A stretch of DNA of 13,336 nt from a virus. Lineage: Duplodnaviria; Heunggongvirae; Uroviricota; Caudoviricetes. The notes under the pieces are model-generated. The model searched no databases. It was not told the DNA's origin and saw nothing but the letters and a program-made list of their open reading frames with translations. Both the position numbers and the translations under genes were made by a program. Positions 1-13,336 of this stretch are shown here, in pieces (position 1 is the stretch's first letter; each line of letters opens with the position of its first letter). The stretch lies in IMG/VR virus record IMGVR_UViG_2751185957_000009; one strand, written 5' to 3'.

Positions 1-285
1 ACACGCCAGTTCGCCCGGATGTTGGGACTTGAACCGAAGAACACGGCGGTGCGGAGTCCGGAGAGTAACGGAATAGCAGAGAGCTTCGTGAAAACGATAA
101 AGCGTGACTACATCAGTATCATGCCCAAACCAGACGGGTTAACGGCAGCAAAGAACCTTGCAGAGGCGTTCGAGCATTATAACGAATGGCATCCGCATAG
201 TGCGCTGGGTTATCGCTCGCCACGGGAATATCTGCGGCAGCGGGCTTGTAATGGGTTAAGTGATAACAGATGTCTGGAAATATAG
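1..285 (+). CDS. insD: IS2 transposase OrfB (InsD) C-terminal fragment; 5' end outside window
   Basis: Reading frame is open from position 1. The translation ends ...[34 protein letters not shown], the conserved C-terminus of IS3-family integrase-core transposases ([12 protein letters not shown] motif). Confidence 0.8.
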
Positions 286-296: not shown

Positions 297-2510
297 GATC
301 CCACGATTAAAGGCGGGCGCTTAATCGTTGAAAAAGATGGGATTACCGTCCTTGCCGCTATCGAAAAGGGAGGATTACTGGAGGTTAAAGAGGGGGGATT
401 AGCGATTGCGGTAGATCAGAAAGCAGGCGGTGCTATTAAAGCAAGCACGCGGGTCATGGAGGCATTCGGAATAAACCGTCTCGGTCAGTTCGAAATCAAG
501 AATGGTATTGCTAACAATATGCTGTTGGAAAACGGCGGAAGTTTGCGAGTTGAAGAAAATGACTTCGCTTATAATACTACTGTAGATAGTGGCGGCTTAC
601 TGGAGGTTATGGATGGCGGGACTGCAACTGGCGTTGATAAAAAAGCAGGCGGAAAATTAATTGTCTCAACGAATGCGCTGGAAGTGAGTGGTACAAACAG
701 TAAAGGCCAATTTAGTATAAAAGATGGTGTGTCAAAAAATTATGAACTGGATGATGGTTCCGGGCTCATTGTTATGGAGGACACGCAGGCCATTGATACT
801 ATCCTTGATGAGCATGCCACTATGCAATCGCTGGGAAAGGATACTGGTACGAAAGTGCAGGCAAATGCGGTATATGATCTCGGTCGATCAGACCAGAATG
901 GAAGTATCACGTATTCCTCTAAAGCCATCTCTGAAAATATGGTTATCAACAATGGCCGCGCTAATGTCTGGGCTGGCACAATGGTTAACGTGTCAGTCAG
1001 AGGGAATGATGGCATTCTTGAGGTCATGAAGCCGCAAATAAATTATGCACCCGCTATGTTGGTGGGTAAGGTAGTGGTTTCTGAGGGCGCTTCTTTTAGA
1101 ACGCATGGTGCCGTGGATACCAGCAAAGCGGACGTTTCGCTCGAAAATAGCGTATGGGCCATCATTGCCGATATCACTACGACGAACCAAAACACCCTCC
1201 TCAACTTAGCCAACCTTGCGATGTCTGACGCAAATGTGATTATGATGGATGAGCCAGTGACTCGTTCATCAGTGACGGCAAGTGCGGAAAATTTCATTAC
1301 GTTGACCACCAATACCCTGTCGGGAAACGGCAATTTTTATATGCGTACCGATATGGCTAATCATCAGAGCGATCAGCTCAACGTCACCGGTCAGGCAACA
1401 GGTGATTTCAAAATATTCGTGACGGACACCGGTGCCAGCCCGGCAGCAGGAGATAGCCTTACACTGGTAACAACGGGCGGCGGTGATGCTGCATTTACGT
1501 TGGGCAATGCCGGAGGCGTTGTTGATATCGGTACGTATGAATATACCTTGCTGGATAATGGCAACCATAGCTGGAGTTTGGCAGAGAATCGCGCGCAAAT
1601 TACCCCTTCAACCACTGATGTGCTGAATATGGCGGCCGCACAACCGCTGGTATTTGATGCAGAACTGGACACCGTGCGTGAGCGTCTTGGTAGCGTAAAA
1701 AGCGTTAGTTACGATACGGCGATGTGGAGTTCGGCAATTAACACCCGCAACAACGTGACCACTGATGCGGGAGCTGGTTTTGAGCAAACATTGACGGGCC
1801 TGACGCTCGGTATCGATAGCCGTTTCTCCCGTGAAGAAAGCAGTACAATTCGCGGCTTGTTCTTTGGTTACTCTCATTCTGATATTGGTTTTGATCGCGG
1901 CGGAAAAGGTAATATCGATAGCTATACCCTGGGGGCTTATGCCGGTTGGGAGCATCAGAACGGTGCCTATGTTGATGGGGTGGTGAAAGTTGACCGTTTT
2001 GCCAACACCATCCATGGCAAGATGAGTAATGGGGCAACAGCGTTTGGCGATTACAATAGTAACGGCGCGGGTGCTCATGTTGAGAGCGGGTTCCGTTGGG
2101 TTGACGGATTGTGGAGTGTTAGACCCTATCTGGCCTTTACCGGCTTTACCACAGATGGTCAGGACTACACGTTATCAAACGGCATGCGCGCTGATGTGGG
2201 AAATACCCGGATATTACGCGCTGAAGCGGGAACGGCGGTAAGCTATCACATGGACCTGCAAAATGGTACGACGCTGGAACCCTGGCTGAAAGCCGCCGTA
2301 CGTCAGGAATACGCCGATTCTAACCATGTGAAAGTTAATGACGATGGCAAATTTAATAATGATGTGGCTGGAACCCCTGGCGTTTATCAGGCTGGGATAA
2401 GGTCATCGTTTACCCCGACGTTAAGCGGTCATTTGTCAGTCAGCTATGGCAATGGCGCAGGGGTAGAATCGCCGTGGAATACTCAGGCGGGAGTGGTCTG
2501 GACGTTCTGA
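270..2510 (+). CDS. Autotransporter (AIDA-I/Ag43-like) truncated by IS2 insertion; passenger beta-helix repeats plus C-terminal beta-barrel; probably a pseudogene
   Basis: 746-aa ORF whose first 9 codons, including the ATG, lie inside the IS2 terminal repeat. Passenger region has ~19-aa repeats (GGxLxVxxGGxAxxVDxKAGG). C-terminal ~270 aa has alternating aromatic/hydrophobic beta-strands and ends in WTF, typical of autotransporter barrels. No signal peptide or native N-terminus is visible. Confidence 0.75.
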
Positions 2511-2571
2511 TAACAGAAAATAAACAGGCTGTGATGTGTCACGGTCTGTTTATCAAATTAATTGCAGATAT

Positions 2572-2600
2572 AAAAAACCAACCGTAAAGGTTGGTTTTTT
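2572..2600 (+). terminator. Rho-independent terminator after the autotransporter gene (symmetric, possibly bidirectional)
   Basis: AAAAAA-CCAACC-GTAAA-GGTTGG-TTTTTT: perfect 6-bp stem flanked by an A-run and a T-run, 60 nt after the stop at 2510. Confidence 0.6.
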
Positions 2601-3014
2601 CTTGGGATTTTTCACGAGAGTAGTTTAATTGAGCGTGTAACTTCATGATTTAAAATAATGTATATGATTCAACTTTTAAACCGTATAACCAAACGTATAA
2701 CTAAAATGATTTGCTGAAAAAATGCACAATTCAGGGTCGGATTTTCCCGGATGTTTAATTTATAAAAACGAAGCTGGTGGATGATCTGCGTGGTGATTTC
2801 CACCATTCAGAGCAGGGGCGGTCATCATGCCCATGCCATAACAAAAACCCCATATTCGTGGTTTTTCTGTGTTGTGGCTATTCTGCCGTTGCCGTGCTGG
2901 TGGATATTTCCGTTATGGGGATCACCATATCGGCATCATGCCCACCAGCCAGCGCAATTTTGCGCTTTGCTTTAAGTTCAGCAAGTTACCGCGCCGGATT
3001 ACGCCAATGGCTGT

Positions 3015-3194
3015 TTCCGAAAGAATCAACGGGTTAGGCCTTAATGGGCTGCGTGGTAATTATCAGCATCCAGAATATGACGGGTTATGTTTCCGACCTC
3101 CTCAATTTGAGGTTCCCGAAAATATCAACGGGTTAGGCTGGTTTCCCCGATGTTCGCCGCTGGCGAATTTCGAAAATATCAACCAGTTACCGCC
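3015..3194. repeat. Four direct repeats of an ~18-bp motif (AA(A/G)AAT(A/C)TCAACGGGTTAGG-like) with ~50-bp period
   Basis: Copies centred near 3024, 3073 (degenerate), 3119 and 3174. Largely non-coding; the last copy overlaps the 3' end of ORF 3187-3468. Confidence 0.5.
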
Positions 3195-3468
3195 GCAACC
3201 GCTCCGGCTTCTTCCAGTGGTATGTAATTTTCTCCGTTTCCCGATACAGTGCCACGCGGCGATTGTAGGCCAGCATTTCAAGAACGCGGATCCGTATGTT
3301 GCGCATATCCACATCATTAAGCTGGATACCATCACGGCGCATCACCTCAGCAACAACACGCGCATAATTTTCGGCTGTCACGCTGTCCGGCTGCGTGGCC
3401 TGTTCGTCAGTCTGCTGGCTGATTCCACCAGCACGGCGGATTAATCCCAGTATTTCGGCTTCTGTCAT
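3187..3468 (-). CDS. Hypothetical protein (93 aa) at the distal end of the satellite
   Basis: ORF with ATG preceded by AGGTG; non-repetitive, charged/helical composition. No family recognised. Confidence 0.45.
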   Translation of the reverse strand: MTEAEILGLIRRAGGISQQTDEQATQPDSVTAENYARVVAEVMRRDGIQLNDVDMRNIRIRVLEMLAYNRRVALYRETEKITYHWKKPERLRR

Positions 3469-3501
3469 TGTGCACCTATCGTTCTGATTGTCTGGTGTCG
3501 T

Positions 3502-3684
3502 CGGGTCCTTCCTGGAATTATGGACCCGTTACGGGGCGGCGACCTCGCGCGTTTTCACTATTTATGAAAATTTTTCGGGATCCATGTCCGGTTTCTCTAC
3601 AAGTTAACCATATGAAAAATATAAAAACATGCTTTCCATGAACCGGACATGCGCAAAAAACAGACACTAAAACCGGACATCGAA
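3502..3684 (+). other. Lambda-type cos site copy 1: cosN core plus cosB-like array of three AACCGGACAT sites around an AT-rich segment
   Basis: 3531-3578 (ACGGGGCGGCGACCTCGCGCGTTTTCACTATTTATGAAAATTTTTCGG) is near-identical to the lambda left end as I recall it (GGGCGGCGACCTCGCGGGTTTTCGCTATTTATGAAAATTTTCCGG); the 12-nt cohesive-end sequence GGGCGGCGACCT is at 3534-3545. AACCGGACAT occurs at 3641-3650 and 3671-3680 and inverted at 3584-3593. Confidence 0.75.
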
Positions 3685-3748
3685 CCAGTTAACCGAAAGT
3701 GTGCACAAATCACATGCATTGCTGCGAGTGATTAACAAGTTATCGGCT

Positions 3749-4183
3749 TTACTGTTCTGTATCGGCTGATTGCTCCATGCTGGCACGGCGAACGCTTACG
3801 GCATGACGCCACCCAGCCAGAAAGCCAGCCATTTTATTTCGTGCCTTGCTCACATCTTCCGGTGAATAGCCGTAAATCTGCAAACCTTCATCAAATCGAT
3901 GTTCTGTTTCTTCACTGGAGTACTCGTCACGCTCAGATGAAAGCAGCCTGGCAAACATAATTTTTTCCAGCGCACTGGTTTCTACGTGATATCTGATGGC
4001 CTCAAGACGGCTTTTACCTGAAGACCAAAGCAATGTATGCCCGATGTGATAACCGCCAGACTTTCCGCGATCCGCATTAAGATACGGCATCCCCTGTTTG
4101 GTCCATGCGCGAATAGTGGTTCTGTTAACCTTGAAATGTTCAGCTATTTCCTGCTGACTTACAAAACAAGCTTTATCAATCAT
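3749..4183 (-). CDS. Nu1-like small terminase subunit / packaging-specificity protein (144 aa, shorter than lambda gpNu1)
   Basis: The N-terminus (DKACFVSQQEIAEHFKVNRTTIRAWTKQGMPY) parallels the lambda gpNu1 winged-HTH region (NKKQLADIFGASIRTIQNWQEQGMPV). AAGGT Shine-Dalgarno 6 nt before the ATG. Lies between two cosN copies. Confidence 0.7.
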   Translation of the reverse strand: MIDKACFVSQQEIAEHFKVNRTTIRAWTKQGMPYLNADRGKSGGYHIGHTLLWSSGKSRLEAIRYHVETSALEKIMFARLLSSERDEYSSEETEHRFDEGLQIYGYSPEDVSKARNKMAGFLAGWRHAVSVRRASMEQSADTEQ

Positions 4184-4251
4184 AATGTTACCTTAACTGC
4201 ATGGTTAAATATTAATCAAGTGGTGGTGGTGTCACCTTCACGGAAAAACGT

Positions 4252-4316
4252 CATAAATAGCGAAAACCCGCGAGGTCGCCGCCCCGTAACGGGCCATAAT
4301 TCCAGGAAGGACCCGC
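4252..4316 (-). other. Lambda-type cosN copy 2, inverted relative to copy 1, upstream of the Nu1-like gene
   Basis: Reverse complement of 4252-4316 (GGGTCCTTCCTGGAATTATGGCCCGTTACGGGGCGGCGACCTCGCGGGTTTTCGCTATTTATGA) matches copy 1 over ~70 bp and matches lambda cosN including GGGCGGCGACCT (4274-4285 on the minus strand). No AACCGGACAT sites follow it. Confidence 0.75.
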
Positions 4317-4338
4317 AAAAAAGCCGGATTTCTCCGGC
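4317..4338 (-). terminator. Rho-independent terminator ending the capsid operon
   Basis: On the minus strand: GCCGGA-GAAA-TCCGGC followed by TTTTTT, 7 nt after the stop at 4345. Confidence 0.7.
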
Positions 4339-4344
4339 CTTGTC

Positions 4345-4758
4345 TCAGATGGTTTTCAGTATGCGATCGATGTCGCCGTCATCGCCTGGGTTTCTGCCAT
4401 CGTATGCCATGCCAGCTGATACGGTTTGTGGGCTGTGCATGTCCATAAAGTTTTCAAAGGCTGCGGTAAGCTCTGGTGCAACCTTCGGGCGTTCCTGCTC
4501 TATGGTCATGTTCAGGATGTTTTTAGCCGTATCAACATCGATACAAGGCACGTTTGCCATTGCACGCAACAGCGGCTGATAGTCTTTATGCTCATGAAGC
4601 GCCATAATCGCATCAGCGCGCGGCTTGTCCTGCTCTTCCAGTTTGTTGAGTTGATATACGGCCTCGTAGGTTGATAAACCTCTGTCAGCCATTGCCCGCG
4701 CTTCGGCTTTAAATTTACTCGCCAGCGGTAGCGCCATGATGCTTTCATTCGTTGCCAT
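4345..4758 (-). CDS. Hypothetical protein (137 aa), last gene of the capsid operon
   Basis: ORF with GGGGGA Shine-Dalgarno, starts 12 nt after the D-like stop. Acidic C-terminus. No family recognised. Confidence 0.55.
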   Translation of the reverse strand: MATNESIMALPLASKFKAEARAMADRGLSTYEAVYQLNKLEEQDKPRADAIMALHEHKDYQPLLRAMANVPCIDVDTAKNILNMTIEQERPKVAPELTAAFENFMDMHSPQTVSAGMAYDGRNPGDDGDIDRILKTI

Positions 4759-4770
4759 CGTTCCCCCTGC

Positions 4771-5106
4771 TTATCGGGCCAGCGGCTGAACGGATACGCC
4801 AGAACCCGCAAAGGCGGCGCATTTTTTCGCATCGGTGTCGACGCTCTCAGGCCAGTTAACGGCGGCAATATTGAATATCCCCGTCTTGTAACACTGTGCT
4901 GATTTCTGCTTTGACGTGTCCACGAGGTACGAAGTCAGATAAACAGCCTTGCCAGATTCCTGACCATCCCACGGCTTAAACTCGCCATTGTCCACCAGCA
5001 TCAGCGGGGTAAATTCCTGAATAACGCCAGCATCAGCGGCAAAATGTACCAGTGTCGTTGATACCTGCTGACTGCCTGCAAATAACTCAATATATGGAGT
5101 GTCCAT
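4771..5106 (-). CDS. Head decoration protein, lambda gpD homolog (111 aa)
   Basis: Similarity to lambda gpD as recalled: TPLMLVDNGEFKPWDG vs TPLMLDTSSRKLVAWDG; CYKTGIFNIAAVNWPESVDTDAKKCAAFAGSGVSV vs [35 protein letters not shown]. Same length class. GGGGGA Shine-Dalgarno. Confidence 0.85.
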   Translation of the reverse strand: MDTPYIELFAGSQQVSTTLVHFAADAGVIQEFTPLMLVDNGEFKPWDGQESGKAVYLTSYLVDTSKQKSAQCYKTGIFNIAAVNWPESVDTDAKKCAAFAGSGVSVQPLAR

Positions 5107-5117
5107 ATAATCCCCCG

Positions 5118-6173
5118 TTAACCAATTTTGACGGTAACAAATTTGCGAATATCTGCCGGAACCGGCTGCGGTGCGCTGTGTGTCTGCACGTACTCAATCG
5201 CCGGATCGCCGTCCTCAATCCAGTTTTTCGGGTAGTACATGTTTTGCGTTGCGCCCGTTCTTACCGCTTCCTGATCCATAATCGCACCATAGGCCACCAG
5301 CCCTTTATTGTTGGTGTTGCCCAGGACCAGCAAATCAGGCTCAAGGAAATATTTTTCGGTGCCGTCGCTGTCAGTGTATTTGCCGGAATAGACAATAAGA
5401 GCAATATCGCCCAGATAGCCTTTAAAGCTCACCACTTCGCCCAGGTTTTTACAGGCCATTTCTGCGGCGGATTCTGAACCACGGGAAAGATCGTACAGTT
5501 CACGGAATTTTTTAAAGCTGCGTAACGTGCGCCATACCTCAGCGCCCATAATCATGACGTTGGCGGGGCAACCTGCCTGATCTGCGTATAGTTCGATGTC
5601 ATAGATTGGATCGTAAATATCTTTATCATGCTCGGACCATTTTTTGCCGTCGGACTGCTCTATGATGTTTTTTTCCGGTATCTTCCAGTCGATTTCATAG
5701 CGTTCTATGCCTTCGCCCTCAATGATGTTTTTTCCGGTCGTTACCGCATTCACCGCCAGCCATTCCACGCGTGCCTTAATGGCGTTTATCTGGCGGCGCA
5801 TGTTGCCAGTAATCAGGCGCATACGGCGATAGGTAGGGTCGTTAAGCTGTGCCGGATCTTCTCCAGCCATGCGCATGATGGTTTTCGTTGGATCGATTTC
5901 GTGCTTTGGCTTCATGTAGCCAGGTTTGATTGTGCTGGTTTCGTACCCTTTATCGCGCTGAACCTGGCTACCCACCATAGGCGAACAAAACGCCGACATG
6001 GTGACTTCTTCAATGTCCAGGGTATCCAGCATGATGTTTTGCGTGCTGAATGTCGCCACGTTCGGGAAAAACAGCGTGGTAAACAGAGGGCTGAATTTAA
6101 AATCCGCAATATCCCCGCGATTCAGGTACATAAAAAGCTGGTTAGTGTTAAGTGCCGTTGCTTTGCCTGCCAT
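5118..6173 (-). CDS. Major capsid protein, lambda gpE homolog (351 aa)
   Basis: Conserved blocks shared with lambda gpE along the whole length: DFKFSPLFTTLFF, IKPGYMKPKHEIDP, GEDPAQLNDPTYRRMRLI, VSFKGYLGDIALIVYSG, YPKNWIEDGDPAIEY. Roughly 45-50% identity by eye. Confidence 0.9.
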   Translation of the reverse strand: MAGKATALNTNQLFMYLNRGDIADFKFSPLFTTLFFPNVATFSTQNIMLDTLDIEEVTMSAFCSPMVGSQVQRDKGYETSTIKPGYMKPKHEIDPTKTIMRMAGEDPAQLNDPTYRRMRLITGNMRRQINAIKARVEWLAVNAVTTGKNIIEGEGIERYEIDWKIPEKNIIEQSDGKKWSEHDKDIYDPIYDIELYADQAGCPANVMIMGAEVWRTLRSFKKFRELYDLSRGSESAAEMACKNLGEVVSFKGYLGDIALIVYSGKYTDSDGTEKYFLEPDLLVLGNTNNKGLVAYGAIMDQEAVRTGATQNMYYPKNWIEDGDPAIEYVQTHSAPQPVPADIRKFVTVKIG

Positions 6174-6379
6174 TATTCACCCCCATAATTTTTATGCATC
6201 CCAAGCGCCGCAAGTAAATAAGAGCGTACAAGTGAACCTATCGACGGCTCCGGCGTCATCAGCGGATCCAGTCCAGCCGCCACGCCAGCCTCATAGTTTT
6301 TTTTGTGGCGCTGCTTGAGCACCTCCACGATTTCGGGGCTTATGTACACCGAAACACCGCCTTTTTTCTCTTCAGCCAT
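6173..6379 (-). CDS. Hypothetical small protein (68 aa), first gene of the capsid operon, coupled to the E-like gene
   Basis: Its stop overlaps the E-like start (TAATG). AGGAA Shine-Dalgarno. No family recognised. Confidence 0.55.
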   Translation of the reverse strand: MAEEKKGGVSVYISPEIVEVLKQRHKKNYEAGVAAGLDPLMTPEPSIGSLVRSYLLAALGMHKNYGGE

Positions 6380-6407
6380 AGTAAGAAATTCCTCTTCGAC
6401 TAAAAAA

Positions 6408-6463
6408 ATCAGGACTGGATGTTTATCCAGTCCTGATTATAATCAGAATTGCATTTTATGCAA
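6408..6463 (-). promoter_or_regulatory. Putative sigma70 promoter (TTGCAT-16-TATAAT) overlapped by a perfect 13-bp inverted repeat, upstream of the capsid operon
   Basis: Minus strand: -35 TTGCAT (6463-6458), -10 TATAAT (6441-6436). Palindrome ATCAGGACTGGAT-GTTT-ATCCAGTCCTGAT at 6408-6437, followed on the minus strand by seven T. A second small palindrome TTGCATTTTATGCAA at 6449-6463. Confidence 0.5.
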
Positions 6464-6540
6464 TAATATTGAGTTATGTTGCAAATTATGAAATGATTAT
6501 CCCGATCACGAACGCCAGTGCATCCAAAAACCTCATATGC

Positions 6541-6609
6541 AAAAGCCCGATAAGAACCCTCTGACCTTATCGGGCTTTTTTGGGCGCAAAAAAGCCGGAT
6601 TGCTCCGGC
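6541..6609 (-). terminator. Tandem rho-independent terminators after the 74-aa gene
   Basis: Hairpin 1 (6545-6575): 9-bp stem GCCCGATAA/TTATCGGGC flanked by A4 and T6, so bidirectional. Hairpin 2 (6594-6609): GCCGGA-TTGC-TCCGGC with an A6 run, which is a T-run on the minus strand. Confidence 0.65.
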
Positions 6610-6629
6610 TATGTGTGCTGTGTGCTGGA

Positions 6630-7921: not shown

Positions 7922-7930
7922 TTCTCGCAA

Positions 7931-8123
7931 CCTCTCACTTTTTCGCCTCACTTTTTCAAGCGTCTCACTTCGTCGCAGTTGGGATTTTCGGTTTTTCTAT
8001 GTGTGTGTTTTATAAGTATTTTTTTACCCCTCACTTTTGAGGATGTATACAGGTCGAAAAGTGAGGGAGAGCGGGCTAATTTTGGCCCTCTTTCTATCCC
8101 CCTCGCTTTTGCTCCTCACTTTT
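7931..8123. repeat. Putative replication origin: at least six CCTCACTTTT iterons around an AT-rich spacer, directly 3' of the replicase gene
   Basis: Iterons at 7934, 7948, 7964 (variant), 8029, 8101 (variant) and 8114, plus one inverted copy at 8057-8066. AT-rich stretch 7991-8027. The last iteron overlaps the replicase stop codon. Confidence 0.65.
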
Positions 8124-9522
8124 ATAGCGGCGCTACATCATCCCCATCGATACTAATAACCCCATCTTTTTCCAGCTTGTACAGCCAGCGCCGGAAGTTT
8201 TTCATTTCATACCCCAGCTTTTTCATGTCATCACGTAACAGCGGGATCGTGCACTTGTCGCCGTTCTGTGTGCGTGAACGGATGCACCCCCATAGCGCGG
8301 TATGGTTTTCCGTCTTGTTCCCTGCCTCCTCGATGCGCTCCAGTTCAACAGGAGGGCGCGGATCATCCACCACCACCAGCGACGTGATTAATTCACCGTC
8401 AGCGTCGGTAAAAAGCTCCACCACGCGTAAGTCATATGCGGCTTCTTTGAGTTCCTCCGCGTCCTTCATTTTGGTGCATGAGATAACCAGCGCTTTGCTT
8501 CCTGCGTCCTCCCTGCGTATCCGGTATTCAGCATCCAGCGAAGCACGAAATGCACTGGAACCGCGCGCGCCTTTCGTCTCATCCTTGCCGGAATGGTGAA
8601 CCACCAGCACCGTGGCCCCTGTGCGTCGTTTCAGTTCGTCACAACCACGGATAAACGCCCCCATATCACGGGAATCATTTTCATCATTCCCACCAAAGCA
8701 ACGCGCCAGCGTATCCAGAATAATCATGCGTACAGGTTTACCCGTTTCCCGCTCCACCTGACGGGCAGCGATAACCATTTCATCAACATCAAGCGGGGCA
8801 GCCGGAAAGATGGGGCGGTTTACCAGATACAGATTTTTCACCTGCTCATCGTGCACAACCTCCCAGGCTTTTACACGACGCGGAACGCCGATACCGCCTT
8901 CACCAACCACATAGAGAACCGCACCATGTGCAACCCTGCGGCCTCCCCACTGGCGACCAGTGGCAACATGGCACGCCCACGATCCGGCAAGGAATGATTT
9001 ATAGGACCCGCTAGCCCCGTATATGCTGCATAGCGATACCGCCGGAATAATCCCCTTAACCACGTAATCCAGTTGCGTGTCGTATCCGGTAGATCCAACG
9101 CTCATCGGTAGCGTGGTTTTTCGCTGGTGGTTTTTTTCTTCCACCGGCTCTTTCCCGCGCACCCGTTCCAGGTATTCGCGCCAGTTCTCCCGCATATGGC
9201 TGTGCATCCCTTCGGGGTAATAATTCGCATCAGTTACACCCGCCGCCGCCAGCTTGTGCGCAATGGCATTAATATTTGATGGCCTGATGTGGCCTGCCTT
9301 GTACAGCCGGACACAATAGCGCCCCTCGTCGATGATTCTCAGGTCTGCCAGTTCATCCAGTTGATCATCAGCCAGCACAACGGGAGGCACATTATCGCCA
9401 GCCAGTCGCCCGTCCTGTTCCTGCCACTGTTTTGCATGTGCCCAGGCATCACTACCCGCAAAAATAATGACTTCGGTCATCTTGTCGTAAGGCTGTTTTT
9501 TTAAGTTCGGTGCGCTTTTCAT
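8122..9522 (-). CDS. Replication protein with RecA-like AAA_25 ATPase domain (satellite replicase/helicase, 466 aa)
   Basis: P-loop-like YGASGSYKSF, Walker B-like MIILD, and the signature VLVVHHSGKDETKGARGSSAFRASLDAEY typical of AAA_25 replicative ATPases. Its start overlaps the upstream ORF stop (ATGA). Confidence 0.8.
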   Translation of the reverse strand: MKSAPNLKKQPYDKMTEVIIFAGSDAWAHAKQWQEQDGRLAGDNVPPVVLADDQLDELADLRIIDEGRYCVRLYKAGHIRPSNINAIAHKLAAAGVTDANYYPEGMHSHMRENWREYLERVRGKEPVEEKNHQRKTTLPMSVGSTGYDTQLDYVVKGIIPAVSLCSIYGASGSYKSFLAGSWACHVATGRQWGGRRVAHGAVLYVVGEGGIGVPRRVKAWEVVHDEQVKNLYLVNRPIFPAAPLDVDEMVIAARQVERETGKPVRMIILDTLARCFGGNDENDSRDMGAFIRGCDELKRRTGATVLVVHHSGKDETKGARGSSAFRASLDAEYRIRREDAGSKALVISCTKMKDAEELKEAAYDLRVVELFTDADGELITSLVVVDDPRPPVELERIEEAGNKTENHTALWGCIRSRTQNGDKCTIPLLRDDMKKLGYEMKNFRRWLYKLEKDGVISIDGDDVAPL

Positions 9523-11013: not shown

Positions 11014-11070
11014 AAACTATCAGCGCCGTGGTGTGAGGTATTACGGCGCATTGCTATGCAGGACAACACA

Positions 11071-11244
11071 ATGACCGATAAAGAATTGACCAAAACATTA
11101 TCACCGGCACGGAAAAGACGGCGCAGAAAGATAGAGCATGAATCAGAAAGATTCGCACCATGTGCTTTTGCCCTTGAGCAATTCCTTAAAGAGTATAGGG
11201 AAAAGCGCTCATTGCAGGTATGGCAACGAACTGAACCAGACTGA
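11071..11244 (+). CDS. Hypothetical small basic protein (57 aa; alternative start at 11056)
   Basis: ORF with AGGA 8 nt before the ATG at 11071; contains an RKRRRRK basic patch. Convergent with alpA. Confidence 0.35.
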   Translation: MTDKELTKTLSPARKRRRRKIEHESERFAPCAFALEQFLKEYREKRSLQVWQRTEPD

Positions 11245-11337
11245 TTGCATTGCCCACCAGCCTGATAGCGGCTATCATCCCCGTGCTTATGTTTGGGATC
11301 ATATACACATAAGGCGCAGCGGGTTAATTGTTCAGAA

Positions 11338-11366
11338 AGGCGGCTCCATATCGGGGCCGCTTTTTT
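11338..11366. terminator. Terminator-like hairpin between the convergent plus-strand module and alpA
   Basis: GGCGGC...GCCGC stem followed by TTTTTT on the plus strand, 27 nt after the alpA stop on the other strand. Confidence 0.4.
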
Positions 11367-11392
11367 CGTGTTTGTCATATCTGTGATACCCG

Positions 11393-11599
11393 TTAAGCAG
11401 CCGTTCCGCGTGCTTCCTGTTCGCGTTCTTTCTGCCAGGCCAACACATCATCCTCATACCATCCGCGACGGCGTAAACCAACGCGAAAACCCTGCGGAAA
11501 TTCTCCGGCGTTGATCATGCTTTGCAGCGTGCTGTCTGCCTTGATGTGGATAATTTTTTTTACTTCCTGGCGAAAGATAATTTTTCTGATTGCTTCCAT
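11393..11599 (-). CDS. alpA: AlpA-family transcriptional regulator / excisionase-like protein (68 aa)
   Basis: Motif RQEVKKIIHIKADSTLQSMINAGEFPQGFRVGLRRRGWYEDDVLAWQKER matches the AlpA (Phage_AlpA) pattern as recalled (EV..I.....STLY.....G.FP..IKLG.R.V.W...EV..W). AAGGT Shine-Dalgarno. Confidence 0.8.
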   Translation of the reverse strand: MEAIRKIIFRQEVKKIIHIKADSTLQSMINAGEFPQGFRVGLRRRGWYEDDVLAWQKEREQEARGTAA

Positions 11600-11731
11600 C
11601 GTGATTTACCTTGTGAATCCGGTGTATTCCGGTGACAAATACGGTAAATCATCGGATATGGGTAAAAACAGTTCCCACCGTTTTTAAACGGTATACACCG
11701 TTTTTATATTGATGATTTGAAATGGAATTAT

Positions 11732-11754
11732 AAAAAAAGCGGCATTTCTGCCGC
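11732..11754 (-). terminator. Rho-independent terminator after ORF 11766-12017
   Basis: AAAAAAA-GCGGCA-TTTC-TGCCGC: 6-bp stem, TTTC loop, T7 on the minus strand, 12 nt after the stop. Confidence 0.65.
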
Positions 11755-11765
11755 TTCCAGGATTG

Positions 11766-12017
11766 TTACCGCCATTTTTTGGGCCTGCCTCCGATCTTCA
11801 TAGATGCCGGACGTACGACCTTATCAATACTTACCGCCAGATTTCTGGAAGCGCCACGGGATACCAGAAAATCTACTACCTGTTTTTTTGATGGGGCCGT
11901 CGTTCTGTCCTCCGGATCGTAGGTTGACCAAAATTCATGCTGAACCATCAGGGCCAGTTGCAGCCCGTCGCAATTGCATCTGATATTTTTTTGCATCTTA
12001 ACGGTTTCATGTTTCAC
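11766..12017 (-). CDS. Hypothetical small protein next to the integrase, possibly an excisionase-like DNA-binding protein (start uncertain)
   Basis: ORF between int and alpA with basic C-terminal tail KIGGRPKKWR. The track start is a GTG; in-frame ATGs at 11996 and 11948 lack good ribosome-binding sites. Confidence 0.4.
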   Translation of the reverse strand: MKHETVKMQKNIRCNCDGLQLALMVQHEFWSTYDPEDRTTAPSKKQVVDFLVSRGASRNLAVSIDKVVRPASMKIGGRPKKWR

Positions 12018-12094
12018 GGCCTTGTCGTTAAATTTGATGCAATTATACGACGGTTTTACATGGTTTTCGTAGTTTTTACTGGTTTTCTGTACAG

Positions 12095-13336
12095 CTACAC
12101 GGCTCGGATACCCCTTTTACCACTGGCGAGGGTTACGCCCGTCGCCGCAGCCTCGACAAATTCGCCCCACCAGCGCATCAGCACGATGCGTTTTTCTATG
12201 TAGTTGCTCCGGTTGTATGCCCGTCTAACTTCGTTGGTGTCGACGTGGGCAAGTGCCGCCTCTATTACGTCCGGCTCGAATCCTTCCTCGTTCGCTGCTG
12301 TGCTGAATATGGCGCGTAATCCATGAGACACCAGCACGCCAGCGAATCCCATACGCCGCAATGCTGCGTTAGCTGTCTGGCTGTTCATCGGCTGCTGTGG
12401 GTCTTTCAGACTTGGGAAAACGTAATTGCGGTGGTGGCTGATTGGTTTCATGGCCTCCAGCACCGCCATAGCCTGACCGGAAAGCGGGATAACGTGATCC
12501 CTGCGCATCTTCATGCGTCCGGCAGGTATCGTCCATTGCTTCGCGTCCAGGTTGATTTCATCCCACCGCGTTGATGACGCTTCGGCGGGACGGGTTACGG
12601 TCAGTAACTGCCATTCAATCAGTAATCTGGTCTGCCGTTCTGTTGCCGATACTGATAAAGCCTGCATAAGCTCCGGCAGCTGTTCGGGGCGGATTGTTGG
12701 CATATGTTTTTTTACAGGTGAGGGAAACGCCTTACGCACATTCATAGCCGGATTGGCATCAATCAGCCCACTGTTGGCGGCGTAATCCATTACCTCATTA
12801 ACGCGCTGTAAAACCCGCTTGAGTGTTTCCAGGTTGCCGCGCTCCTTGATGGGTGTAAGCACTTCAACGAACCTTCGGGCGGTGAGGGTATCTATTGGCG
12901 TGTTGCCGATGAACGGGAATACATATTTATCCAGCGAACGCCAGATGTCTTTAATCGTGTTGGGGGCCAGATTCTGGCTGATTTTCACCTGGTACCATGC
13001 CGCCGCCACATTTTCGAACGTGTTCCCTTGTCTTCGGGCCTCTGCCTCTCGTTTTTTCTTCTCATGGCCCTGCGGGTCAGTTCCGGCACTGATTAACGCT
13101 CTGTACTCGCTACGGCGTTTTCTGGCATCAGCCAGGGAAACATCATCAAGCGATCCAAAACTCAGCAATATTCTTTTTTTGTCCGATGGCCGGTAGTAGG
13201 AAAATCGCCAGAGTTTTGATCCGGACGGTTTGACCAGGAGAAAAAGCCCTCCGCCGTCCTGTAGGGTGTATTCCTTTTCCGCTGGTCTGGCTGCTTTGAT
13301 CTGCACCGTGGTTAATGGGGGTGTTTTTCTCGCCAT
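12095..13336 (-). CDS. int: P4-type tyrosine integrase (413 aa)
   Basis: N-terminal arm-binding domain typical of P4-like integrases (LTTVQIKAARPAEKEYTLQDGGGLFLLVKPSGSKLWRFSYY), C-terminal catalytic region with HGLR and the tyrosine in RRAYNRSNY. Start codon is the last three bases of the window. Confidence 0.9.
   Translation of the reverse strand: MARKTPPLTTVQIKAARPAEKEYTLQDGGGLFLLVKPSGSKLWRFSYYRPSDKKRILLSFGSLDDVSLADARKRRSEYRALISAGTDPQGHEKKKREAEARRQGNTFENVAAAWYQVKISQNLAPNTIKDIWRSLDKYVFPFIGNTPIDTLTARRFVEVLTPIKERGNLETLKRVLQRVNEVMDYAANSGLIDANPAMNVRKAFPSPVKKHMPTIRPEQLPELMQALSVSATERQTRLLIEWQLLTVTRPAEASSTRWDEINLDAKQWTIPAGRMKMRRDHVIPLSGQAMAVLEAMKPISHHRNYVFPSLKDPQQPMNSQTANAALRRMGFAGVLVSHGLRAIFSTAANEEGFEPDVIEAALAHVDTNEVRRAYNRSNYIEKRIVLMRWWGEFVEAAATGVTLASGKRGIRAV

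Follow-up and report, generated by a model that had tools for sequence, protein, structure and literature searches.

In this study, we analysed a 13,336-nucleotide stretch of viral DNA (IMG/VR record IMGVR_UViG_2751185957_000009; the whole stretch is referred to as the window) and identify the open reading frame (ORF) at 3749–4183 as rppA, the gene by which a phage-inducible chromosomal island (PICI) of the EcCICFT073 type redirects packaging, a reading to which we give a probability of about 95%. It has been established previously that c1503 of the island EcCICFT073 encodes a protein of 144 residues, RppA, and that this protein founded the Rpp ('redirecting phage packaging') family (Fillol-Salom et al., 2019, Mol Cell, PMC6739421). 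The original prediction, made from the sequence alone, had described the product of this ORF as a shortened homologue of lambda gpNu1 that might redirect packaging in the manner of Rpp proteins. The guess of redirection was right, as the protein is RppA itself, identical at 144 of 144 residues to c1503 of Escherichia coli CFT073 (C_RS07025, WP_000565609.1). RppA is already characterized and the finding is therefore not a new one; the protein is a textbook example of a satellite reprogramming the small terminase of its helper, and the presence of an identical protein elsewhere adds no new biology.

The ORF is read on the minus strand from an ATG at 4183 to a TAA at 3749–3751 and comprises 144 codons plus the stop, so that its predicted coordinates hold, and that it is a true gene is established by the 100% protein identity to CFT073 WP_000565609.1. 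The encoded protein has a winged helix-turn-helix (wHTH) at about residues 1–64 and a helical, C-terminal dimerization domain. The RppA sequence given in Fig. S1C of the original description starts with MIDKACFVSQQEIAEHFKVNRTTIRAWTKQGMPYLNADRGKSGGYHIGHT (MIDKACFVSQQEIAEHFKVN...), as does the protein in the window, and the rest agrees except for letters garbled in the PDF (PMC6739421). In addition, the homology arms of the primers published for the deletion of c1503 have exact matches at 3753–3807 and 3977–4031, within rppA. On the DNA level, the 1-kb rppA region is near-identical to E. coli CFT073 and HM670, the rppA–cos DNA shows 98.6–99.3% identity to CFT073 and other E. coli, and a megablast search of complete E. 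coli genomes with rppA and both flanks found 83 that carry the entire 901-nt segment, including CFT073 (98.6%). In all 40 RefSeq genomes among the matches listed, the region bears no Rpp annotation, nearly all entries reading 'hypothetical protein', and rppA is therefore easily missed in annotation. The coordinates of rppA and of the other features discussed here are collected in Table 1.

Table 1. Features of the window, with the two cos sites listed on either side of rppA and the island genes below
Feature	Position	Strand	Remarks
cosQ-like element of cos2	3498–3512	plus	TCGTCGGGTCCTTCC; published cos2 sequence
cosN of cos2	3534–3545	plus	GGGCGGCGACCT; convergent with cos1
cosB region of cos2	3546–3685	plus	three ACCGGACAT repeats; near-identical to PhiR12-type lambdoid cos
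ACCGGACAT repeats in cos2	3584–3592, 3642–3650, 3672–3680	minus, plus, plus	bp 51–59, 109–117, 139–147 from the cohesive end
rppA (c1503 homologue)	3749–4183	minus	144 aa; N-terminal winged HTH and C-terminal helical dimerization domain
cosB region of cos1	4184–4272	minus	island-specific; site read by RppA–TerS (published)
R3-PICI (proposed) in cos1 cosB	4237–4220	minus	AGGTGACACCACCACCAC; bp 48–65; PMC9026076
cosN of cos1	4273–4284	minus	GGGCGGCGACCT; 12-nt lambda cohesive-end sequence, exact match
cosQ-like element of cos1	4305–4319	minus	TTTGCGGGTCCTTCC; compared with cosQ in PMC6739421 and PMC6092414 supplement figures
gpD-like decoration protein	4771–5106	minus	111 aa
gpE-like major capsid protein	5118–6173	minus	351 aa; Phage_cap_E, E = 3e-51
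AAA_25/RepA-type helicase	8122–9522	minus	466 aa; replication gene
AlpA-like HTH protein	11393–11599		Pfam Phage_AlpA below threshold
Tyrosine integrase	12095–13336		

The sequence features by which an Rpp protein can be recognized were all found, namely homology to the family, a wHTH, the key residues, the lack of a TerL-binding tail and a position behind an island cos site whose cosB is not that of a phage. When compared by phmmer with the sequences in the PDB, RppA matched RppC of EcCIEC2733.1 (6HLK; 6HN7 for the complex with residues 1–98 of lambda TerS) over residues 2–125 with E = 5e-31. The translation contains R21-T22 (...KVN-R21-T22-TIRAW...), L51 (...GHT-L51-LW...) and F121 (...MAG-F121-LAGW...), which have been assigned to the DNA recognition helix, the TerS heterodimer interface and helix alpha-6 of the homodimer, respectively (PMC6739421). 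RppC is a clear homologue in which R21-T22 and L51 are conserved; however, it has 153 rather than 144 residues, and its identity to RppA has been reported as 43.65% (PMC6739421). The two proteins do not interact with each other (PMC6739421), and RppC has been reported to be the tighter binder of lambda TerS. The functional properties of the family, that is, binding of helper TerS, block of the helper and the requirement for island transfer, have been shown for a protein identical to that in the window (PMC6739421), and no sequence evidence contradicting the identification as RppA was found in the window.

The relationship to gpNu1 is more limited than had been predicted. With 144 amino acids against 181, RppA falls 37 residues short of lambda gpNu1, close to the roughly 40 residues of the original prediction, and the proposal that the N-terminal region of gpNu1 is kept is borne out insofar as a similarity exists: in a pairwise BLASTP comparison, residues 8–71 of RppA aligned with residues 3–55 of Nu1 at 30% identity over 64 columns (E = 3e-6, for this single comparison); the N-terminal winged HTH is of the same type as that of gpNu1 (PF07471, NMR structure 1J9I), the likeness covering about 50–60 residues. 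However, the similarity is not a strong one. By phmmer, RppA reached only E = 0.08–0.13 over about residues 8–57 with the N-terminal domain of lambda TerS in the PDB (chains 6hn7_B, 1j9i), and with the Pfam family Phage_Nu1 (PF07471) it scored 14.7 bits where 30 are required, with residues 8–40 placed on positions 3–36 of the 164 in the profile, a score level with those of several generic HTH families. BLASTP gave no alignment with lambda Nu1 beyond about residue 71, and over the central oligomerization and C-terminal gpA (TerL)-binding domains of Nu1 no significant alignment of RppA to the lambda protein was found. RppA is therefore not a C-terminally truncated Nu1, and the earlier description as such was imprecise; it combines a wHTH resembling that of Nu1 with a C-terminal domain of another kind. 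Membership of the Phage_Nu1/TerS family was likewise considered and rejected, given the sub-threshold Pfam score and the lack of an oligomerization or TerL-binding domain. The wHTH fold of Rpp proteins is known from the crystal structure of RppC, and according to the published structure RppA differs from gpNu1 in that it dimerizes via its C-terminal helices and not via the DNA-binding domain (PMC6739421). A tblastn search with RppA against 50,697 phage records gave no match at E <= 1e-3; Rpp therefore does not appear to be phage-borne, and the similarity between RppA and Nu1 is invisible at database scale.

The missing C-terminus has been discussed before, as Murialdo and Feiss (2022, PMC9026076) noted that Rpp proteins are 30–40 residues shorter than TerS and hence lack the TerL-binding C-terminus, which is essentially the argument of the original prediction. 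It could nevertheless be proposed that RppA is a self-sufficient small terminase of the island, which binds island DNA and recruits helper TerL directly without any need for helper TerS. This would fit with its gpNu1-like N-terminal wHTH and with the location of the gene, since nu1 in lambda and rppA both lie directly downstream of a cosQ-cosN-cosB arrangement, and also with the finding that sister islands of the Nissle 1917 type carry a genuine Nu1-like terS of 180 aa at the same position. However, RppA shows no similarity to the TerS of the Nissle island (BLASTP E = 1.4) and, as described above, none to the Nu1 domains needed for such a function, and no conserved candidate TerL-binding motif is present among Rpp proteins (Murialdo and Feiss, PMC9026076). 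Furthermore, it has been published that phage terS is needed for island transfer, its deletion abolishing transfer. We therefore regard a self-sufficient terminase as very improbable, and the related suggestion that the protein might make a different, direct contact with helper TerL finds no support. The other suggestion made originally, heterodimerization with helper TerS, has been demonstrated in published work for the identical protein with the TerS of lambda and phi80 (PMC6739421).

It is just as improbable that RppA acts in the island as a common HTH transcription regulator of the MerR/Xre-like kind and has no role in packaging. Its best Pfam matches are to generic HTH families (HTH_28, HTH_36, HTH_17 and MerR_1), and the -35 box of a sigma-70-like sequence upstream of rppA overlaps the proposed R3-PICI, so that some autoregulation of rppA is conceivable; however, all of these HTH matches are below threshold and confined to residues within about 2–45, and the packaging role has been shown genetically for the identical protein and structurally for its homologue (PMC6739421).

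The published experiments on RppA can be summarized as follows. When expressed, RppA blocks lambda and phi80, whereas HK97 is not blocked, and mutants that escape the block map to TerS (E65K and others); in two-hybrid assays RppA forms homodimers as well as complexes with TerS, and island transfer is lowered by deletion of rppA and by the substitutions L51D and F121R (PMC6739421). In the presence of RppA, transfer increases for a plasmid with cos1 and decreases for plasmids with a phage cos, and a phi80 chimera with the cosB of cos1 is better packaged (PMC6739421). The R21A-T22A variant retains interference but has lost island targeting, and interference does not therefore require DNA binding (PMC6739421). 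That RppA might be a pure anti-phage decoy, which sequesters TerS and has no part in DNA targeting, would be in line with the continued block of phage packaging by R21A-T22A, but the same variant loses the preferential packaging of cos1, deletion of rppA reduces island transfer and the cos1-plasmid and chimeric-phage experiments refute the idea for the identical protein (PMC6739421), which leaves it a negligible chance. In the crystal structure of RppC with TerS(1–98), the DNA-binding domain of the Rpp protein is seen in the position of one of those of TerS (PMC6739421).

Based on these results, the identification as RppA leads to the following model for the gene in the window. Upon induction of a lambda- or phi80-type helper, RppA, itself a dimer, would bind the gpNu1/TerS of the helper, with its winged HTH replacing one of the TerS DNA-binding domains and its C-terminal helices packing on helix alpha-3 of TerS. 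The resulting hybrid RppA–TerS module would no longer recognize the cosB of the phage, and packaging of the helper would therefore be blocked. Instead, the hybrid would recognize the island-specific cosB by cos1, immediately upstream of rppA. Since RppA is without a TerL-binding tail, it would be the TerS partner that brings in TerL, which would then nick the lambda-type cosN of the island and package island concatemers into helper capsids. Both the exact DNA bases that RppA–TerS would contact and an EcCICFT073-like behaviour of the mosaic island of the window are inferred. A similar strategy is used by the Staphylococcus aureus pathogenicity islands (SaPIs), where a satellite protein also binds the small terminase of the helper, so that the helper is stopped and satellite DNA is favoured. 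In SaPIs, Ppi blocks the phage TerS while a TerS of the island's own targets its pac site, whereas RppA unites the two functions, converting the helper TerS into a hybrid of new specificity. The SaPI proteins are unrelated to RppA in sequence, and such SaPIs use headful (pac) packaging and not cos.

The rppA gene sits between two convergent sites, cos2 and cos1, which face each other across it. The lambda cohesive-end sequence GGGCGGCGACCT occurs in two exact copies in the window, where 0.04 would be expected by chance, and the copy in cos1 is identical to the cosN of the published EcCICFT073 cos1 (PMC6739421, PMC6092414 supplements). The first base of the cos1 cohesive end corresponds to position 4284, which places the ATG of rppA 102 bp away, and the start codon of rpp in PICI-C has likewise been located at 102 bp (Murialdo and Feiss, 2022, PMC9026076). 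The published cloned cos1 fragment extends past cosB into the 5' part of rppA, and swapping cosB between cos1 and cos2 has shown that only the cosB of cos1 supports RppA-dependent transfer (PMC6739421). When cos1 was compared with the 50,697 phage records, as a control for the cos2 comparison described below, no match beyond about bp 50 was obtained.

An inverted repeat of about 80 nt, the arms of which span 3502–3580 and 4238–4315, contains both cosN copies. On the cosQ side of cos1, the flank at 4291–4315 is a near-exact reverse complement of the cos2 flank at 3502–3526 (25 nt, 96%), as is also the case in HM670, and the inverted repeat is therefore lengthened to about 80 nt. This flank is one of the differences from EcCICFT073, as CFT073 has GGGTCCATATGCCGGAAAGGACCCAT at this place; the matching flanks look like the outcome of sequence homogenization between the two cos sites. 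A second difference is found in cos2, where a single base is inserted between cosQ and cosN (3524–3526, GGACCC in the window and GGCCC in CFT073 and HM670), so that the cosQ–cosN spacing is one base longer than in CFT073. We also observed, between the stop codon of the gene for a 137-aa protein and cos1, a hairpin GCCGGAGAAAUCCGGC followed by UUUUUU (4318–4342, minus strand; -18.4 kcal/mol, z = -2.4), the U-run of which overlaps cosQ. As a terminator signal its folding energy is only suggestive, and a consensus terminator scan did not report a hairpin at 4318–4342; should it act as a terminator, a separate promoter would be required for rppA. On the minus strand, sigma-70-like matches are present at 4235–4208 and 4208–4179, the first of which overlaps the proposed R3-PICI.

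The second site of the window is the cos2 published for EcCICFT073 (sequence in the PMC6739421 and PMC6092414 supplements). Papers from 2018 and 2019 (PMC6739421) state that neither cos site of the island has an identifiable phage cosB. We show here that the stretch of cos2 from cosQ to about bp 147 matches the cos of the lambdoid phages PhiR12_1 to PhiR12_5, the identity to PhiR12_1 being 92% over 180 nt and 96.8% over 155 nt. Three copies of ACCGGACAT are present in the shared stretch against 0.10 expected by chance, in positions like those of R3, R2 and R1, and the first is located at the position of lambda R3, which spans bp 50–65 (PMC9026076). In the PhiR12 phages this cos stretch lies directly upstream of nu1, and the homology to cos2 ends just before that gene. 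The PhiR12 Nu1 (169 aa) aligns with lambda Nu1 over the C-terminal half only, and its DNA-binding domain is therefore a different one. Of the 5426 complete E. coli genomes, 1141 (about 21%) carry the PhiR12 cos–nu1 segment at >=80% coverage, and a search for literature on the PhiR12 phages and their accession numbers found none that was relevant. The phage counterpart of the cos2 cosB is a side observation of this work and the only element in it that may be new.

It has been published that RppA does not use cos2 and that deletion of cos2 raises lambda-mediated transfer of the island. The match to PhiR12 suggests, as judged by sequence comparison, a second packaging route through a common type of helper that would be independent of Rpp. 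Tentatively, and with somewhat less than even odds, cos2 could be seen as a faithful and full PhiR12-type packaging site rather than a redundant or decaying copy, which would give the cassette a dual specificity: cos1 together with RppA would serve to hijack terminases of the lambda/phi80 type, while cos2 would allow the island to be packaged directly by PhiR12-type terminases, without Rpp. If true, this would account for the retention of a second cos site despite its non-use by RppA and the effect of its deletion, and the match thus offers a testable explanation for a feature that the original papers did not account for.

Elsewhere the window has the make-up of a typical Gram-negative PICI, with genes for a DUF4222 protein, SSB and PerC in addition to those listed in Table 1; no helper phage was found within the window. 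The island shares with EcCICFT073 not only the identical RppA (144/144) within the same cos2-rppA-cos1 cassette (98.6% DNA identity over 901 nt) but also the neighbouring 137-aa, gpD-like and gpE-like genes, and positions 3021–6628 resemble EcCICFT073 at 94.7%. For the corresponding genes of EcCICFT073 (c1499, c1500), published work detected no phenotype, packaging occurring only in full-size capsids. In contrast to EcCICFT073, the integrase and alpA end of the window is of the Nissle 1917 type (99%); the left end (2481–3580) and the alpA–int end (11016–13336) are both 98–99% identical to the Nissle 1917 island, which has the same integrase and adjoins tRNA-Pro. A third portion, 7924–9375, is found in neither EcCICFT073 nor the Nissle 1917 island. 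A full-length copy of the island at high identity is absent from the complete E. coli genomes, the best match covering 85% of it at 93% identity. Taken together, these matches mean that the island in the window is, to judge by its composition, a mosaic and not EcCICFT073 itself.

At the position of the AAA_25/RepA-type helicase, a primase of about 584 aa is encoded in both CFT073 and Nissle 1917. The segment 7924–9522 matches neither island, and we therefore conclude that the replication module has been exchanged. The identical rppA–cos cassette is combined here with a different integrase and replication module, which shows that it moves as a unit between PICI backbones. On the left side of the island, an ORF for an AIDA/pertactin-type autotransporter (270–2510) is abutted by the C-terminal part of an IS transposase (rve_3, 19–285, plus strand). 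The autotransporter ORF is without an obvious signal-peptide start and is therefore probably a gene interrupted by the IS; its counterpart in Nissle 1917 is annotated as a pseudogene and adjoins narP.

In the Nissle 1917 island (L001, 2405–3340), two convergent cos sites surround the 180-aa Nu1-like terS, which takes the place of rppA. We considered whether rppA could be a diverged allele of this terS and rejected the idea, as the BLASTP comparison of the two proteins (E = 1.4) indicates that the gene was replaced and has not diverged. The Nu1 proteins of lambda, PhiR12 and the Nissle island can be aligned with each other over their C-terminal halves, unlike RppA. It appears that the gene for packaging specificity and the outer cosB are modules that can be exchanged, and the fact that the two-cos layout recurs in Nissle 1917 suggests that such a modular design may be general. 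The outer cos of that island has a phage-like cosB with the R elements CATGTCGGTACT, GAAACGACACG and CATGTCGTTTC. With regard to the inner sites, CACCACCACCAC is found at about bp 54–65 within the R3-PICI proposed for cos1 (4220–4237 of the window, minus strand), and the inner cos of the Nissle island (L001, about 3258–3275) contains the complementary run GGTGGTGGTGG at a similar distance from cosN in inverted orientation, a correspondence that may be due to chance or may reflect a shared recognition element.
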